From the NCBI RefSeq assembly GCF_056712565.1, contig NZ_CM160072.1: DNA of 64,000 nucleotides; one strand, given 5' to 3'. The notes beneath the pieces were generated by a model, which saw only the letters and a program-made list of their open reading frames with translations, searched no databases and was not told where the DNA came from. Positions within the stretch are counted from its first letter, which is position 1. Every line of letters begins with the position of its first letter. Below, in pieces: positions 1,068 through 8,376 of this stretch. A program made the position numbers and the translations under genes.

Positions 1068-2801
1068 TTAAAGCGAGCGGATCCCGTAGGACTCAATGTG
1101 GTCAGACAGCGTGTCTTCTTTCTCGTACAACATGGCTCTGCCAACCGCCATAATCAGCGCAACTGCACCATCGATTTTGTTTTCCGCCTGCTCTTTGACG
1201 GGTTTCACCACATCATCGTTACCCGGAATGGTTTTGCCGACCACGTTGCCGATACACCAGGTCATGATGGGATTGCCATCATGATGAAAGCGCCCCGATT
1301 CAATTGCCGCTTCCAGCTCTTTCATCGGGTCGGACATGTTGGTGTAGTTCTGAATGATAGTGATGGGGTTCAGGTCTTCATCAGCAAGGTCATGTGACAA
1401 CCCGGTCGCCCCGAAGGGGTCGATGGGTGACTCACTGACCGGGCTGATTTTGTTCGCCGCTTTGGCCTCCTCGAGGATGTAGCGATAATCCACCTCCGCA
1501 CCATCGGTAACGGTCAGAACGCCCATTTCCACCCATTTCTGAAAGCGTTCGGCTGTCCGTCGATCTTCATTTTTCTCGACGCTGTACACCGTGTCATACG
1601 GTACCCAGAAACGCGGGGCCACACTGTAGTAATGCGTTTTACCGTCAATCTCGCGGGTATAAAGTCGCGCCATGCTGTTCATATCCAGCTTACGCGCCAG
1701 GTCAAAGGCCAGAATGCACGGCTGCCCCTCGAACTGCTCAAGGGTCAGTGATTTATCCTCGCAGCTCTGCCAGCTCACCAGGTTGAAATACGCCGAACGC
1801 GCCGACACCCAGATATTGAGGTGTTTTGTTTTAAAGACGTTTGCCAGACGGGCGTTATTTTTCGCACGCTGCTGCTGACTTAACAAAAATTCGCGATAAA
1901 CCGACACGCCAATATTTGGATTGGCTTTTTCCAGCACCTGCGGGTCGGTCCAGTCGTCACCTTCATCAACGGTATAGATGATCCCGAACAGTTCATCGTT
2001 AGGCACCGAGCCATTGAGCATCTCGATGACTTCCCGCCGCTTGTCGTAGCACGGCCCCTCAATGTTGTACCCGGCGGTGGTGATAGCCCACATCAGTGGC
2101 TGACGTCGCGCCCCCATCCCGGTAAGCATCGTGGTGTAAAGCGCATCGGTGGCGTGCTCGTGATATTCATCCACCACCGCACAGTGGGGTGATGAACCAT
2201 CACCGGGGTTACCGATCAGCGGTTCAAACCGCGCGCCATCCTCCGGACGGTTCATGTTTGAGGCGTTAACCTCAATCCCGAACGCTTCCGTCAGCATGGG
2301 TGTGCGTTTACACATCAGTCGAGCCGGGCGAAAGACTTCCCACGCCTGTTTCTCTGTCGTGGCACCGGAATACACTTCCGCGCCAAACTCGTTATCACAG
2401 GCAAAACAATACAGGGCAACACCGGCAGAGATTGCCGATTTGCCGTTCTTACGGGGGATTTCGGTATACACCTCCCGGAAGCGGCGCAGCCGGGAGCCTT
2501 TATTGACCCAGCCAAACGCGCAGCAGATCACAAAGAGCTGCCACGGCTCCAGCGTGATGGGCATCCTCTTAAATGCCCACTCACCCTTGGTGTGCGGCAA
2601 CAGCTGAATAAATTTGGCGGCCCGTTCAGCCAGGTCCTTGTCGAAGCGGTAACGAAACGACTTACTTTTTTCCGCCATCAGGTCATCAAGATGGCGCTGG
2701 CAGGCCTGAATCACAAACTGGCAGGCCACAATCTTTCCGCGCACGACATCCCGGGCATACTGATTGGCAGCATTTACGTTGGGGTAAGATTTCCGGCTCA
2801 T
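1068..2801 (-). CDS. Phage terminase large subunit
   Basis: 577-aa ORF with the characteristic size and ATPase/nuclease organisation of lambdoid terminase large subunits; preceded by small subunit and HNH endonuclease. Confidence 0.85.
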
Positions 2802-3301
2802 GATTCGATGATTTTCAGAAACGGGTTAGTGGCTTTCTTCTGCCCCGCCAGGCCAATCAGACGCTGACGGCTGCTGGGGTCGAGTCCGAGCATTGCCCCC
2901 GTGCTGCTCATCTCGGACTCCTGTTCTTTTTTGGCTGTCAGCTCCGGATTTTTGACCCTGCCGCCCATTGCGCCGGTGATGGTATTGCCCTGTATGGCAA
3001 TATTTTTCACAGCACGTAGCCAGAACTCATAGGCCACGCACCACCGCTCAAGCACCGCGAGGTCAGTCACGCACAGCAGGCCCTGACCGCAGAGTTCTTT
3101 GGTTGTCAGTTGCCACATGATCGTGGCGAGAGGGAGATCTTCTTCAGCGAACCACTCCGGTGGCTCAACACCTTTGATGGGCGTAAAAACAGGTTCATCT
3201 TTGTTCAGGGCTCGCTTGCCGGGGTTTCCGGCCAGCGCCTTGCGCGCCGTTGGCTTGGGGCGACGCCCGGAACGCCCCGCCGTTCCAGCCATATGCGGCA
3301 C
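2798..3301 (-). CDS. Phage terminase small subunit (P27-like)
   Basis: 167-aa basic protein directly upstream of and overlapping the large subunit by 4 bp. Confidence 0.7.
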
Positions 3302-3417: not shown

Positions 3418-3768
3418 TCACTTCAGTCGTTCACGGGCCGTCTTCGCCTTATGACACGGCCAGCACAGGCTCTGCAGATTGCAGTCTGCATCAGTGCCGC
3501 CATGCGCTTTAGGGATGATGTGGTCAACGGTTTTCGCCTCACGCACCACACCGACATGCAGGCACAACTGACACAGGCCTTTGTCACGCTTCAGCACGCG
3601 CGCGCGGATAACATCCCACTTCGAACCGTAGCCGCGCTGGTGACGGGATTGTCCTGGCTTGTATTGTTTCCAGCCTTCGCTTTTGTGGCTTTCACAATAG
3701 CCTGACGGATCAGTGGTGGTTTGGCGGCAGCCGCGAACGCGGCAGGCTTTTGGGGTTCGTGGGGGCAT
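3418..3768 (-). CDS. HNH endonuclease (terminase-associated)
   Basis: 116 aa with cysteine-rich zinc-finger pairs (CRVRGCR, CQLCLH, CWPCH) and DHIIPKAHGG HNH motif; canonical position upstream of terminase genes. Confidence 0.85.
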   Translation of the reverse strand: MPPRTPKACRVRGCRQTTTDPSGYCESHKSEGWKQYKPGQSRHQRGYGSKWDVIRARVLKRDKGLCQLCLHVGVVREAKTVDHIIPKAHGGTDADCNLQSLCWPCHKAKTARERLK

Positions 3769-3870
3769 TTAAAGTGGGATCTAACTCTAATAATTTAAAA
3801 AATTTAATTGGGTCTTGATATTAATCACATAGACTCAATGCTCTTTAGTTCTTACATAGGTGGTTGTATT

Positions 3871-4311
3871 ATGAGTATCCCCAGTTTAGATGTTCATAAA
3901 GTTGTTAAGTGCGCAGAGCATAAAAAGGCTTTAGATGCAATATCTCTCAAACTTAAGAATAACATTATTGACTCAAGCTCTGAATACGATTTTCTTGGCG
4001 ACACAATAATTTTCAATAAAGATAAAAAAAATAGGTTAACCCTCAAACTTTCAACATATGAACTAGAACTTATTTTCAAAGAAACACTGCTAGTCATTGA
4101 TGAAGCTCCTGTATTGAAGTTTGCTGCCATTGACCCAACCGATGAAAATAACAACGAGCTGATTGATTTATTTTTATCCAAAGGTGGATTTATTTATATT
4201 AGAGAATACAAATCCGAGCCACATTATGAGTATGGCGACACTTCTCTATTTTTACATATACTTGACGCTACTCTTAAAGAGCTTAAATCTGCAAACAAAA
4301 TATCCTATTAA
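3871..4311 (+). CDS. Hypothetical protein, AT-rich moron
   Basis: ORF 3808..4311; likely start ATG 3871 (MSIPSLDV...) preceded by AGGTGG. Very low GC versus flanking phage genes, opposite strand to the structural/lysis genes, no recognisable motif. Confidence 0.45.
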   Translation: MSIPSLDVHKVVKCAEHKKALDAISLKLKNNIIDSSSEYDFLGDTIIFNKDKKNRLTLKLSTYELELIFKETLLVIDEAPVLKFAAIDPTDENNNELIDLFLSKGGFIYIREYKSEPHYEYGDTSLFLHILDATLKELKSANKISY

Positions 4312-4417
4312 ATAAATTTTTGCTAACATAGCCCCGCGCCATGACAAGATTTTCTGTTCTAGATGCAAGGGCTATGTGTGAATATCTATAAACAAAAACC
4401 CCATCCGGTGATTTTTG

Positions 4418-4669
4418 TCATTTTTTAGCCATCTCAATTGCGGCATCAAAAAGTCGTTCAAGAATAAAATCAGGGTACTGTAATTTTTCTTGCTCGATAT
4501 GAAGCTCATAAATTTTCCCTTCCCACTCCCATTTAAAATTAAATCCAGAAGCAGAAGGTGCGAAATGTGTTTTAGCTTTAGGGTTAGCGTAACCAGCAAC
4601 AGTCAACACATCAAACTTAAAATCTTGAGGTTTAATACGCATAATCATATCCTTTGCCAAGTTCATCAT
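4418..4669 (-). CDS. Hypothetical small protein (83 aa), AT-rich moron
   Basis: Intact ORF in the same low-GC island, convergent with 3871..4311; no recognisable domain. Confidence 0.35.
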   Translation of the reverse strand: MMNLAKDMIMRIKPQDFKFDVLTVAGYANPKAKTHFAPSASGFNFKWEWEGKIYELHIEQEKLQYPDFILERLFDAAIEMAKK

Positions 4670-4739
4670 TATTCTTCGCGATTATAAAACAATGAATAAA
4701 ATCATTAAAGCATAGACGTTAAATATCCTCAAAATGTGA

Positions 4740-5177
4740 TTAGTTGGGACATTGCGTCCTGATATACTCCTGCAAGTAATTGACCTGTGAGGTTATCTTG
4801 TCGATTCCACTTCGGAGACGGTAATAATGGAGTTCAGCATCTGCTGTAAGTCTAGGGCTTTCTCCATCGCCCATGCCGCTGGCTCCGGTCGTTGACTTTG
4901 TACAGGTGGCGGCGACTTGCAGGCGCTTATGCCCAGCAGAAACATCAGCACGAAGACTTTCGATAGTCGCATTAGCATCAGCAAGCTCCTTTGTATATCT
5001 GGCATCGAGTTCAGCTACATTACGTTGACGCTTCTGCATATCAGCGATGATGGATGTGGCTTTATCGCGCTGTACTTTGTAGACGATGGCGTCATCACGG
5101 TAATTATCAACAGCCCATGACAAGCAGACGATGATGCAGATAACCAGAGCGGATATAATCACCGTTACTCTGCTCAT
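4740..5177 (-). CDS. Rz-like i-spanin
   Basis: 145 aa with N-terminal TM anchor then coiled-coil-like periplasmic region; overlaps and follows the lysozyme gene; contains an embedded Rz1 frame. Confidence 0.75.
4793..4972 (-). CDS. Rz1-like o-spanin lipoprotein, embedded in Rz in another frame
   Basis: Internal start [18 protein letters not shown] gives a signal peptide with lipobox (ISAC) followed by a proline-rich segment ([14 protein letters not shown]), as in lambda Rz1. Confidence 0.6.
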
Positions 5178-5650
5178 ACCTGAATCTCTTTGACCGTTCC
5201 GCCGGCTTCTTTGAATTTTGCAATCAGGCTGTCAGCCTTATGCTCAAACTGACCATAACCAGCTCCCGGCAGTGAAGCCCAGATATTGCTGCAACGGTCG
5301 ATAGCCTGACGAATATCACCGCGATCAATCATCGGTAAAGCACCACGCTCTTTAATCTGCTGCAGTGCAACAGCATCCTGGCTTTTTGGAGAGAAGTCTT
5401 TCAGTCCAAGCTGTTTACGGTATGCATCCCACCAGCGGGAAAGAAGCTGGTAGCGCCCGGCAGCCGTTGATTTGAGTTTTGGGTTTAGCGTGACAAGTCT
5501 GCGAGGGTGATCGGAGTAATCAGTGAATATTTCTCCGCCCACAATGACGTCATAACCATGATTACGTGTCGGTTGTAGCCCATTATCCGTTCCTTCTGAC
5601 CAGGCCACCATATCGAGGAAAGCTTTACGCTGAGGATTAAGATTTTGCAT
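5174..5650 (-). CDS. Phage endolysin (lysozyme, T4/P21 R-like)
   Basis: 158 aa; N-terminus [24 protein letters not shown]...YDVIVGG is typical of lambdoid R lysozymes; sits between holin and spanin genes. Confidence 0.9.
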
Positions 5651-5942
5651 TTTTCACCCCTGTCAGTCGTTCCCAGAAGTACGTCAGTGCAACCGAACCC
5701 ATCGCACCACTAATCCCCGCAGTTGCGAGAATCATGTAAATACTGAATCCACTTTCGATACTGATTAGGCCACCAATAACACCGGTGAATCCTGATACAA
5801 CTATCTGAGCGAGGGCATTTATCCAGCTCCACGTTGCTTTACTCTGCTTCACATCAATCAGGTAACGGACAAGCCCCCCCCAACCTGCGATGATCAGCAA
5901 AACAAGCCAGAACGCTCCGGCAAGATTCTCTTTTTCGTGCAT
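5637..5942 (-). CDS. Holin (alternative upstream start at 6041)
   Basis: Small multi-TM protein overlapping the lysozyme start; internal start MHEKENLAGAFWLVLLIIAGWGG... gives ~101 aa with about three TM helices. Confidence 0.55.
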   Translation of the reverse strand: MHEKENLAGAFWLVLLIIAGWGGLVRYLIDVKQSKATWSWINALAQIVVSGFTGVIGGLISIESGFSIYMILATAGISGAMGSVALTYFWERLTGVKNAKS

Positions 5943-6051
5943 ATGAATAGCCGCAGTTTCGCCTCCGACAGAAAATCGGAGCGTGAAATGATATGTTGAT
6001 TTATTATTAATTCGAAAATTACATTCTAATTCATCAGGCATTGATGATTTT

Positions 6052-6090
6052 ATAATAATAAAGGCCGTTCGTTACGGCCTTTATTATTGA
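6052..6090 (-). terminator. Hairpin terminator between the late-region moron and the holin
   Basis: Perfect stem AAAGGCCGT / ACGGCCTTT (6060..6082) with 5-nt loop, flanked by A/T runs. Confidence 0.5.
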
Positions 6091-6093
6091 TAT

Positions 6094-6429
6094 TTATTTT
6101 ACATCCCAAGGTAGTTCCTCAAGAGAGAAGACTAATTCATTATCAATAATTTCGTATTCTGCATAACCTTCAACCTCTCCTGAGAAGTTATTGTCAACGC
6201 ATCCTTCATAATAGCTATATGGTGCTATAAAGTGAAACCCATATTCATCTATCTCTGTGATTTCAAAATTGTAGTAATCGTAAGAATATCGAATATCATC
6301 ATCAGAAATAGAACTAAGTACATAGTTATTAAATTTATCGGAATGCTTAACGATAAGTTCTGACAACGCGTCAAGATTCTCTGGAGAGATATTTCCTAAC
6401 GGTAATCTGTACTCAACGGCATTAATCAT
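6094..6429 (-). CDS. Hypothetical acidic protein (111 aa), late-region moron
   Basis: Low-GC ORF rich in D/E/Y, bracketed by two terminator hairpins, between the Q antiterminator and the lysis cassette. Confidence 0.5.
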   Translation of the reverse strand: MINAVEYRLPLGNISPENLDALSELIVKHSDKFNNYVLSSISDDDIRYSYDYYNFEITEIDEYGFHFIAPYSYYEGCVDNNFSGEVEGYAEYEIIDNELVFSLEELPWDVK

Positions 6430-6477
6430 ACAACCTCCTTTTTAACTGATATGAGGTTATATAATGTGTTTCAGTAC

Positions 6478-6510
6478 AAGTAAATAAAAACCCGCTCAAC
6501 AGCGGGTTCG
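6478..6510 (-). terminator. tR'-like rho-independent terminator downstream of Q
   Basis: Minus-strand stem AACCCGCT-GTTG-AGCGGGTT followed by a U-rich tract; about 105 nt downstream of the Q stop, where lambdoid PR'/tR' lie. Confidence 0.5.
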
Positions 6511-6614
6511 TGAAAATTATCAACGGCAGACATACAAAGCCCATCGTTGAGAAAATCTTATCCATATTTTTTGAAAAATGCAAGCTTCATGTCACTATCT
6601 TCGGCGAAAATCAC

Positions 6615-7367
6615 TTATCTCGTCACCTTTCTCAATTGTGTTTCAGCATATGCTTCTTCCTGCCAGCACTTTGTTACTAGTTTATCAATTACGTCTGCAT
6701 ATCCTTTGTACCACTGATAATCAGTCAGGTCTGGAACCAGCTTCTGGACATGACGTCGTGCCAGTGTAGTCGGTAAACGGCTAAACCGGTTTCCATTGCA
6801 ACGCCCACAAGTCTTATAAACAGGCGTGCCATGAAGCCGGGTTCTTTTTTCATCCAGGACAATACCTTTACCCTTACACCCTCTGCACGCCGTGCTGACT
6901 TCTCCCTTGCCATGACAATGCTGACACAGTTCCTTCACCCACTCTTCTTTGATAACGGATTCCCCGCTTCTGGAATGTTTCACCACTTCGCGCAATACAT
7001 TATGAAATCCAGTACCAGTACAATGCTCACAGCGAGCCTTACTTGCCGCAGACCTGGAATAATCAGCAAAGGCAAAATTCACAAGGTAAGGGATGATCTG
7101 TAACCGGGTTTCTTCACTCAATTTGTTCAATGTCGGGTTATCCAGTGCCATCGCGTAATTGAGCAGGCCTTCAATCGCAAACTGAGGATCCTGAACACCA
7201 ACTTTTGCCAGGAATAAGGCAAACCCAAGCGGTGCTTTCGACTGCACCATCCCCTGCGCAGCCATTACATCCGTAATTGTTAAACCACCCGAGCCTGTCG
7301 CCGATGCGTCATCGCTCAATTTTGGAGATTTTGGGGAGTAATATTTCGGTAAGGCTTCAAGGTTCAT
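6615..7367 (-). CDS. Late-gene antitermination protein Q-like
   Basis: Multiple CxxC zinc-binding pairs (CEHCTGTG, CQHCHGKG, CRGCKGKG, CGRCNGN); located immediately upstream of tR' and the lysis cassette. Start may be 7409 or internal ATG 7367. Confidence 0.6.
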   Translation of the reverse strand: MNLEALPKYYSPKSPKLSDDASATGSGGLTITDVMAAQGMVQSKAPLGFALFLAKVGVQDPQFAIEGLLNYAMALDNPTLNKLSEETRLQIIPYLVNFAFADYSRSAASKARCEHCTGTGFHNVLREVVKHSRSGESVIKEEWVKELCQHCHGKGEVSTACRGCKGKGIVLDEKRTRLHGTPVYKTCGRCNGNRFSRLPTTLARRHVQKLVPDLTDYQWYKGYADVIDKLVTKCWQEEAYAETQLRKVTR

Positions 7368-7380
7368 GCTCGTTCTCCAC

Positions 7381-8376
7381 TTACACCAGTACGCCAATTG
7401 CCAGCGCACGATCGATAAAACGAAATATCAGCTCCAGCTGGGAGCCATACATCTCTTCAAATGCCACGGTATCCGCATGCAGCTCGTCGTGATGCTTTCT
7501 GCACAAAGGCAACACAAAAAGGTCATGCGCTTTTGTACCCATTCCACCCTGTCCGTGGCCTATCAGGTGGTGGGGATCATCAGCGGGCTTTCCACAACAT
7601 GCACACGACTGTGTCTTAACCCAGCGCGTGTACTTTTCATTAACCCAGCGGCGACGTTTTGGGCGTAACATAAAAGACTCCGGCGACTCCGGATCCACTT
7701 TCAGCGCCAGCACCTTTTTCGCCTTATCCTGGATGATGCTGGTGGCAGGAACCGAAGGCACAAGGTCACTTTCCCGGGTGACAGACGGCACAACAGGCTT
7801 CGGTAATCTCAGTGCCTTACGGGCTGCACTTTCCGGTAAGGCATCCGCCAGATCATTACGAACCAGCCACCAGCACAGTTCCGGCATTGTCACAACGTGA
7901 CTGTCATCAAAACCGAGATCCCGACGCACAACAGACAACACCCAGCGGGCACAGTTATCCGTTGCCATTGATTCCAGCCGTTCCGTGAACTGATCGCGAA
8001 GCAGGTTATCGCAGTGCCAGCACAGACGGATTGCGCCCGGCGCGTGTCGCATTGTGGTCATGTTCTCGCTGTGCCATCCGGAATGAGGCCACTGACAGCC
8101 CTTTTCACGAAGTAACCAGCTTTCAAGACATTCCACACCCCCCGCACGACGAATAACTGCCTCATTGCGGAACACGGCCCGAATGGCAGGATCATCCGCC
8201 AGCGGTTGTGATGCCGCCGGAACGGCACCACTGGCAAAAGATGAATAACGTTCCGGCTCAGGCTCCAGCAGGACACGCCCCTGCATAAACAGGGGCATCA
8301 GCTCTGAACCGGGCCTGAACAATACGATCCCCATACGCGGGGCAATTTCAGGGGTCAGTAGTGCTCTCACGGTCAC
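7381..8376 (-). CDS. DUF968-family protein (YdfU-like) with C-terminal HNH-like motif
   Basis: C-terminal CACCGKPADDPHHLIGHGQGGMGTKAHDLFVLPLCRKHHDELH resembles the zinc-finger/HNH signature of DUF968 proteins of E. coli lambdoid prophages. Confidence 0.6.
   Translation of the reverse strand: MTVRALLTPEIAPRMGIVLFRPGSELMPLFMQGRVLLEPEPERYSSFASGAVPAASQPLADDPAIRAVFRNEAVIRRAGGVECLESWLLREKGCQWPHSGWHSENMTTMRHAPGAIRLCWHCDNLLRDQFTERLESMATDNCARWVLSVVRRDLGFDDSHVVTMPELCWWLVRNDLADALPESAARKALRLPKPVVPSVTRESDLVPSVPATSIIQDKAKKVLALKVDPESPESFMLRPKRRRWVNEKYTRWVKTQSCACCGKPADDPHHLIGHGQGGMGTKAHDLFVLPLCRKHHDELHADTVAFEEMYGSQLELIFRFIDRALAIGVLV

Follow-up and report, generated by a model that had tools for sequence, protein, structure and literature searches.

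Shiga toxin and other conversion genes of lambdoid phages ride the late transcript in the interval between the gene for the antiterminator Q and the lysis genes, and a gene resident there is likely to be made in bulk upon prophage induction. In Shiga toxin phages stx lies downstream of Q and is governed by pR′, the late promoter (PMC6266700). In lysogens pR′ is constitutively active and its transcription is terminated immediately downstream (PMC7547250). The interval considered here is in a stretch of DNA of 64,000 nucleotides (contig NZ_CM160072.1 of NCBI RefSeq assembly GCF_056712565.1), referred to as the window throughout. It contains an open reading frame (ORF) of 111 amino acids, ORF111 (WP_000606308.1). 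A preliminary description, made from the letters of the window, had proposed an AT-rich moron in the slot between Q, the terminator tR′ and the lysis genes, the position used by stx. ORF111 is tentatively read here as a compact moron cassette and the first gene of the Q-dependent late transcript, with its product a counter-defence or host-takeover factor; that functional part, taken alone, is less certain still.

The cassette and its junction with the phage

The last 215 bases of Q, together with pR′ and tR′, have 89–90% nucleotide identity to SfV, mEp460, phiSTEC1575-Stx2k and 15 Stx2c-converting phages, and the match ends at the terminator. In the alignment with SfV and the Stx2k phage, identity continues up to and through GCGGGTTTTT and divergence follows straight after it (the tR′ T-tail). 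The homologous hairpin of SfV bears a terminator annotation and is followed by orf47, a gene for a 350-amino-acid protein, another terminator and the holin gene; in other loci a gene homologous to the 350-amino-acid one has an N6_N4 methyltransferase domain. In the Stx2k phage small ORFs, three tRNAs and stx2AB come after the homologous hairpin. On these alignments ORF111 occupies the slot where phages with the same Q module carry stx2, so that what the preliminary description said of stx is literally the case for phages with this Q. The variability for which it had suggested comparing the interval across related phages is also there, with stx2 in the Stx2k and Stx2c phages, methylase cargo in SfV and ORF111 in the window.

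ORF111 orthologues in Salmonella, Citrobacter and E. coli GDSC2BY4G are behind a different Q family (DUF1133/PF06530). The lysis genes that follow the orthologues form three different holin/endolysin sets, that of E. coli included (holin_8 and holin_3_7 with GH19 in Salmonella; holin_2 with Phage_lysozyme in Citrobacter). Homology between the window and the Salmonella and Citrobacter cassettes starts at the tR′ hairpin and ends past the cassette terminator, and the homologous stretch contains TTTTTATTTAC[A/T], a variable spacer of 17 nucleotides (nt), TATATAACC, GGAGGTTnTATG, the ORF and a strong terminator. Salmonella and Citrobacter have one and the same terminator 3′ of the ORF despite their differing holins, and homology stops right past its T-run. 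Since Klebsiella phages with a DUF1133-type Q, and without the ORF, also have a hairpin (CCCGC...GCGGG-T7) at the same place, with different cargo and divergence after it, both Q modules have tR′ as a native part, and it looks to be the common recombination joint of the slot. [A near-identical tR′ hairpin (AACCCGC...GCGGGTTTTT) is present after unrelated Q/pR′ modules, SfV-type and DUF1133-type, at the exact point of cargo divergence: window 6480–6509, L012 ~2693–2728, L002 ~5921–5950, L038 ~1716–1740 and L019 ~1315–1345.]

The mobile unit can be taken to extend from the tR′ T-tail through the cassette's own terminator, which is the classical moron layout. Its parts would be a promoter-like element with a ribosome-binding-site hairpin, a strong Shine-Dalgarno sequence, the ORF and an intrinsic terminator, the whole joined to the phage at the T-tail. 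The homology breaks are sharp, base composition is deviant (G+C content 0.30–0.35 over ORF111, about 32% in the ORF, versus 0.47–0.57 in Q and the lysis genes), there is a predicted terminator of its own, and the cassette is found behind different Q and holin sets. ORF111 is downstream of pR′ and tR′ and upstream of the holin gene, on the same strand, as expected of late-operon cargo. The proposal of an AT-rich moron in this slot therefore stands. The features of the locus, all on the minus strand of the window, are as follows.

6615..7367, minus strand: Q antiterminator gene of the SfV/Stx2c/Stx2k type; RefSeq 'antitermination protein' in the identical UTI89 sequence; TAA at 6617..6615
6540..6583, minus strand: putative late promoter pR′, read from the sequence, geometry as in lambda
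6480..6509, minus strand: tR′ intrinsic terminator, stem 6509..6488 then U-run; folding energy, and SfV annotation at the homologous place
6456..6484, minus strand: promoter-like element of the cassette; conserved hexamers and spacing, status uncertain
6425..6465, minus strand: predicted hairpin of the 5′ untranslated region; RNAfold in four orthologous loci and RNAalifold consensus
6094..6429, minus strand: ORF111 (WP_000606308.1), acidic, 111 amino acids, phrog_13663; ORF, RefSeq, profile match and substitution pattern
6054..6088, minus strand: predicted cassette terminator, bidirectional hairpin; folding energy, GGCCGT/ACGGCC core, U-rich 3′ side
5637..5942, minus strand: holin, the first lysis gene; RefSeq
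5174..5650, minus strand: GH24 endolysin; ORF list and RefSeq
4740..5177, minus strand: Rz-type lysis protein; ORF list and RefSeq

The −35 sequence of pR′, TTGCAT (6583..6578), is separated by 17 nt from the −10 sequence TAAGAT (6560..6555), after which come TTTCTC (6 nt) and AACGATGGG (6548..6540). The corresponding series in lambda (NC_001416) is TTGACT, 17 nt, TAAATT, TGACTC and AACGATGGG. Both the geometry and the σ70 pause-type AACGATGGG are the same as in lambda pR′, and promoter function is presumed on this likeness; the block is conserved in SfV and Stx2k phages. By analogy the transcript would start near 6548 and the terminated leader would be ~65 nt (to ~6484). [With pR′ and its AACGATGGG only ~40 nt ahead of tR′, a constitutive leader RNA analogous to lambda 6S RNA and StxS is predicted in lysogens.] The tR′-like terminator placed by the preliminary description at 6478..6510 is present as a 9-bp GC-rich stem (6509..6488) followed by UUUUUAUUU; its folding energy is −14.9 kcal/mol (z = −5.5) and none of 200 shuffles folds as well. 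The second strong hairpin, described as lying before the holin at 6060..6082, was likewise recovered, at 6088..6054 with a GGCCGT/ACGGCC core (6079..6063), −20.2 kcal/mol and z = −7.5, and is terminator-like on both strands. A hairpin and T-run directly 3′ of the ORF were seen in all eight homologous loci inspected. Between 4500 and 8500 there are 9 terminator-like sites versus 3.3 ± 1.6 in shuffles. An Rfam scan of 5600–7000 gave nothing near gathering thresholds, and a tRNA scan found no tRNA between tR′ and the holin gene. Homologues of the window Q elsewhere carry the PF03589 Antiterm domain, and Hfq-bound Pas small RNAs adjoin PF03589-type Q genes and holins in prophages of enteropathogenic E. 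coli (bioRxiv 10.64898/2026.05.13.724894).

The window is regarded as an SfV-like lambdoid prophage, apparently complete, of extraintestinal pathogenic E. coli (ExPEC) of the UTI89/S88 type. A segment of 801 bases around the locus is 100% identical to the chromosomes of UTI89, S88, IHE3034, APEC O18, ATCC 11775 and ~125 other complete genomes. The UTI89 counterpart is a prophage of ~40 kb flanked by ssrA and an integrase gene, with genes for a LexA-type repressor, replication functions, RusA, KilA-N, DUF968, Q, a lysis cassette, a P27-type terminase, an HK97-type head and a contractile tail. The window covers the early region, Q, the lysis genes and the beginning of the packaging genes, with phage genes on the minus strand in the order Q, pR′, tR′, ORF111, second terminator, holin, endolysin and Rz around the locus. 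The mechanical holin ORF reaches 33 codons further upstream than the RefSeq start at 5942, to an ATG at 6041 directly past the cassette terminator; neither start has an obvious, well-spaced Shine-Dalgarno sequence. A second AT-rich island (3750–4800, G+C content 0.32–0.36), between Rz and the HNH/terminase genes, is probably a further moron site. It has an 83-amino-acid ORF (4418..4669, minus strand) and, on the opposite strand, one of 167 amino acids (3808..4311) that is unannotated in UTI89 RefSeq; neither had a match in PHROGs or PADLOC scans.

A family of small acidic proteins

The low-GC acidic ORF that had been noted at 6094..6429 is there, preceded at a distance of 4 nt from its ATG by GGAGG (6438..6434). 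Its predicted product has a pI of 4.05 and a net charge of −19, with 24 aspartates and glutamates versus 5 lysines and arginines, and 19 aromatic residues. Orthologues are 72% (Salmonella), 69% (Citrobacter freundii) and ~70% (E. coli GDSC2BY4G) identical to it and each is exactly 111 codons long. In comparisons of the window gene with these three, the proportion of synonymous sites that differ is 0.79–0.82, i.e. saturated, and that of non-synonymous sites 0.17–0.19; between the Salmonella and Citrobacter orthologues the ratio of non-synonymous to synonymous substitution (dN/dS) is 0.28. Because synonymous divergence is saturated and non-synonymous divergence low, a chance ORF is rejected and ORF111 is judged to be a real protein-coding gene. 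It is intact in 131 of 5426 complete E. coli genomes (2.4%), with at least 99% identity in 130 of them, and no pseudogene annotation occurs among the 40 matches listed of the 131. The E. coli carriers are mostly ExPEC or avian pathogenic E. coli (APEC), with the sequence type 95 (ST95) lineage of UTI89, S88 and APEC O1 represented.

ORF111 matches phrog_13663 of PHROGs, to which no function is assigned, with E = 9.4e-54 and with residues 1–111 on profile positions 1–111 of 111. A HMMER search of 1.84 billion cluster representatives gave 24 matches, nearly all of 106–118 amino acids and 28–46% identical. A profile search adds further members; every one is a single-domain protein of ~110 amino acids and 'hypothetical', and no domain fusion was among them. 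F33, Y48, C77 and W108 are invariant in the family alignment, and the motifs Y-[YF]-x-G-C-x-D-x-N and L-D-E-x-x-W are conserved. Acidity is also a family property, with a net charge of −9 to −20 in all 24 members.

Remote homology searching and structure prediction, both suggested by the preliminary description, had a divided outcome. They yielded the phrog_13663 match and a confident AlphaFold2 model, made with the family alignment (pLDDT, the per-residue confidence score, 86.9; pTM, the predicted template-modelling score, 0.77; topology β1-α1-α2-β2 to β6), and no characterised homologue. The predicted fold is a generic NTF2/cystatin-like α+β one, whose structural matches are weak and at noise level for specific inference. 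The best Pfam i-Evalue for the single sequence was 0.028, and no member of the 24-member alignment reached E ≤0.001. No NCBIfam family was matched by ORF111, none in PADLOC-DB at E up to 1, and sequence and profile searches of PDB gave a best E of 0.18–0.2, which is noise. Immunity-protein Pfam families matched neither ORF111 nor the family alignment, and no sequence or fold relationship to a known DNA mimic of the Ocr, ArdA, Arn or Ugi type was found. A homodimer run with a linker-fused tandem alignment gave a pTM of 0.46 and no confident interface. ORF111 has no signal peptide, no membrane segment and no catalytic signature. Literature searches for WP_000606308.1 and phrog_13663 returned no papers, and the passages matched by keyword in a preprint on whole-proteome annotation of UTI89 have nothing on the locus. 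The earlier suggestion of an immunity-type or inhibitor protein is still guesswork. ORF111 has no toxin gene beside it in the window and no Pfam, NCBIfam, PADLOC or PDB sequence match, and the fold matches are weak and generic. The protein family is uncharacterised; the kind of element, a moron in the Q-lysis slot, is textbook.

Twelve genomic contexts (the window and those of eleven other family members) were informative. The family member lies within the Q-to-holin interval in ten: the window, Salmonella, Citrobacter, E. coli GDSC2BY4G, P0007, P0014, P0008, P0010, P0016 and Klebsiella P0019. Among these ten there are two Q families or more (PF03589; DUF1133/PF06530), a single unannotated 207-amino-acid gene in the Q position, several unrelated holin families (holin_8 with holin_3_7, holin_2 and others) and GH24, GH19 and GH108 endolysins. 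In seven of the ten, with identities down to 34%, it is the gene immediately before the holin gene or a presumed, unannotated one. An orphan N6_N4 DNA methyltransferase gene adjoins a family member in three lineages, and these methyltransferases are read here as counter-restriction cargo. Homologues are spread over prophages of Salmonella, Citrobacter, Klebsiella, Providencia, Cronobacter and Erwinia. So far the family has been met in integrated prophages, metagenomic contigs and two chromosomal loci that are not phage-like.

Some neighbours deserve mention in their own right. The Klebsiella slot (L025–L030, ~3460–7900) is a 4.5-kb island with a family member, an N6_N4 methylase gene, a SocA/Panacea-domain gene with its partner, which form a Panacea-type toxin-antitoxin pair, and a TerB-like gene. 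A metagenomic lambdoid contig (L019, 1381–2772) has a family member directly upstream of an Endonuclease_NS gene, followed by holin genes. It is the only possible inhibitor-enzyme pairing: the window has no toxin or nuclease gene beside ORF111, and this is the one case in the 12 contexts. In the prophage with the Citrobacter orthologue (L007), a 364-amino-acid protein with a pore-forming colicin domain is encoded on the opposite strand (2181–3275) in a nin-like region.

Expression, possible role and alternatives

Expression and biochemical role are inferred from the anatomy, coding status, family, position, acidity and predicted fold described above. In a lysogen pR′ would fire constitutively and its transcripts would stop at tR′, and any that leak through, or that come from a cassette promoter, would stop at the second terminator, so leaving the lysis genes silent. 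On induction, to go by the layout and lambda biology, Q-modified RNA polymerase would pass both terminators, and ORF111 mRNA would be made along with the lysis and structural mRNAs. Transcription of ORF111 is expected to be Q-dependent because the late transcript must cross it before reaching the holin gene, to which established lambda biology is added.

Whether the cassette is also transcribed on its own account turns on the promoter-like element, TTTACT (6484..6479), 17 nt, TATAAC (6461..6456). The arrangement TTTAC[A/T]-17-TATAAC is kept in four of four diverged cassettes, with the spacer sequence varying. The 5′ block of a predicted hairpin doubles as this −10-like TATAAC: AUUAUAUAACCUC (6465..6453) pairs with GAGGUUGUAUGAU (6437..6425), a stretch that takes in the AUG, codon 2 and the last part of the Shine-Dalgarno sequence. 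RNAfold minimum-energy structures have a 12–13-bp stem in all four close orthologues (window, L002, L007 and L035). The RNAalifold consensus has 15 pairs, with one double-sided change, several one-sided ones and one pair broken in one sequence; the double-sided pair is C-G, U-A or U-G and tracks a Val/Ile second codon. By sequestering the ribosome-binding site the hairpin may gate ORF111 translation, since it would be present in read-through transcripts; with four distinct sequences this is a lead. Read-through transcripts from pR′ contain the 5′ arm and would be partly closed, with translation damped. Transcripts from the cassette promoter, if it is real, would begin 3′ of the arm, lack it and be open. 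The 'very high level' of expression claimed in the preliminary description consequently lacks support, as gating by the conserved hairpin may apply to read-through transcripts.

The product would be a soluble, cytoplasmic, strongly acidic α+β protein. Its most likely mode of action is to bind, stoichiometrically, a partner that is basic or itself binds nucleic acids; this is the most economical proposal because there is no catalytic or membrane signature and the family is uniformly very acidic with a single small domain. An inhibitor that serves the phage is favoured because the family is faithful to the late operon and repeatedly near DNA-modification cargo. A bolder form of this, speculative and unlikely, is that the ~110-amino-acid acidic family is a new class of phage inhibitor, the first late-operon product, which neutralises a host factor that aborts the late phase. 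That factor would be, e.g., a sensor or nuclease that responds to proteins of packaging, capsid or lysis; the hairpin that gates translation would tell cassette-promoter transcripts from Q read-through transcripts, and the functional site would be the invariant Cys77 of the GCxDxN loop.

Several points weigh against a phage-serving late gene. Classic anti-restriction has to work on DNA as it comes in, and for that a late gene is expressed at the wrong time. The contexts of P0020 and Erwinia tracheiphila P0049, two of the 12, are not phage-like, and PHROGs and PADLOC scans of the neighbours there gave no functional lead. In tblastn searches with three divergent members (the window protein, P0019 and P0014) there was no match in 50,697 isolated phage genomes, a collection in which phages with the same Q are present; this fits cargo of benefit to the lysogen at least as well as it fits a lytic-cycle function. 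Positional conservation could be due to nothing more than a permissive slot whose conserved flanks recombine. As to the cassette promoter, the −10-like TATAAC is without the canonical final T and a promoter scan gave no call there; conservation of the block can be explained by the hairpin alone, which leaves lysogenic expression putative.

The main rival, possible though on balance unlikely, is that ORF111 benefits the lysogen. It would be expressed in the prophage from its own σ70-type promoter, be insulated by the terminator and protect the host, either as an orphan immunity protein or inhibitor directed against a basic toxin or nuclease (a bacteriocin, or a contact-dependent or type VI secretion system effector) or as a single-protein defence against superinfection. 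The promoter-like hexamers shared by four diverged cassettes, the terminator that is always before the holin gene and the AT-richness typical of morons all agree with this, as do the stand-alone genes in contexts that are not phage-like and the occurrence of the family in prophages, with no match for the three divergent members in isolated phages. Small acidic proteins are, besides, typical as nuclease or toxin immunity proteins, such as Im7/Im9 and barstar, and one homologue is directly upstream of an Endonuclease_NS gene. However, no cognate toxin adjoins the gene in the window or in 11 of the 12 contexts, PADLOC and immunity-protein Pfam matches are lacking and the −10 is imperfect. At locus L020 the gene is 28 bp after the methylase gene, with no room for a promoter, and a lysogenic function would not need strict late-operon placement.

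The faithful position of the gene (10 of 12 contexts between Q and holin, seven of them directly before the holin gene, with different Q families) could instead reflect a late-phase function tied to lysis or late transcription, e.g. as a modulator, in the cytoplasm, of termination/antitermination or of the timing of lysis. This is improbable: a specific partner is unlikely given that the holins and endolysins beside the gene are unrelated, a terminator is always between gene and holin, there is no membrane segment, most lambdoid phages, including SfV and Stx2k with the same Q, are without ORF111, and only 2.4% of E. coli genomes carry it. An antiholin or endolysin inhibitor, considered separately, was rejected on the unrelatedness of the flanking holins and endolysins across carriers.

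Very improbable is an effector made late, freed by lysis like Stx and active outside the cell, e.g. a cystatin-like inhibitor directed at an enzyme of the host or of a competitor, which would lend virulence or fitness to the ST95 ExPEC lineage. The slot is that of stx, release of a protein without a signal peptide would need lysis, and the E. coli carriers are mostly ExPEC or APEC. The last is explained by clonal inheritance of one prophage, though; the fold matches, where a specific inference is wanted, are no better than noise; and the homologues in prophages of six other genera show no pathotype link. A secreted toxin was rejected, as ORF111 has neither signal peptide nor membrane segment. 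That ORF111 is no functional gene, i.e. a chance or decaying ORF in AT-rich filler between two terminators, has in its favour that no domain is matched and that within E. coli only one prophage lineage has it, but it is effectively refuted by the strong Shine-Dalgarno sequence, the retained 111-amino-acid length with the substitution pattern given above, the family of at least 24 clusters with invariant residues and the confident AlphaFold2 fold.

Comparison with known systems

Although the Q and lysis modules are unrelated, a conserved, uncharacterised family keeps to this one slot in prophages of E. coli, Salmonella, Citrobacter and Klebsiella and in metagenomic lambdoid contigs. Were ORF111 to prove a factor of counter-defence or immunity, the catalogue of such factors would gain a new family, and there would be a simple model of how paired terminators, and possibly a translational hairpin, insulate a moron from lethal lysis genes. 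Should it have no phenotype, the locus would still serve as a clean, sharply bounded illustration of how a moron is built and of how recombination takes place at a conserved tR′ hairpin. The cassette is clean and testable, and its slot is medically relevant; there is nothing yet in it to surprise a phage geneticist.

With the stx2 operon of Stx2k and Stx2c phages the locus shares a homologous Q/pR′/tR′ module and cargo that begins directly past the tR′ T-tail, upstream of the holin gene and on the same strand; dependence on Q read-through is inferred in both (PMC6266700). The cargo itself is unlike stx2, being a single cytoplasmic acidic protein of 111 amino acids that lacks a signal peptide and any similarity to Stx, in a slot of ~430 bp without tRNA genes, versus several kb. 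The orf47–orf48 cargo of SfV, with its N6_N4 DNA methyltransferase, is in the same interval after the same tR′ and also has a terminator just before the holin gene, and ORF111 family members adjoin this methylase in three other lineages. In the window, by contrast, there is no methylase in the slot and ORF111 has no enzyme signature.

The counterpart of the late-control region is the pR′-6S RNA-tR′ arrangement of lambda, which has the same promoter geometry, with AACGATGGG 6 nt past the −10, and then an intrinsic terminator. It differs in the length of the leader (194 nt in lambda versus ~65 nt predicted for the window), in its Q family and in having no such moron directly after tR′. StxS of Stx phages (PMC7547250), and possibly Pas-type small RNAs, RNAs that arise between Q and the lysis genes, are comparable in that a constitutive pR′ closely before tR′ predicts a short leader RNA in lysogens. 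In the window region there is no Rfam match at threshold.

Ocr, ArdA, Ugi and Arn are acidic DNA-mimic or inhibitor proteins of phages. The ORF111 family resembles them in small size, in a strong net negative charge throughout the family and in being carried by a mobile element. In architecture the cassette is like morons, a concept reportedly due to Juhala and Hendrix with HK97 gp15 and lambda bor and lom as classical examples. Like these, ORF111 is a single low-GC gene with a promoter-like element and an intrinsic terminator, set in between phage modules that are conserved and occurring in phages of different backgrounds. Unlike them, its promoter is putative, its product is predicted to be soluble and acidic instead of membrane- or surface-located, and it has one preferred slot across many phage types.

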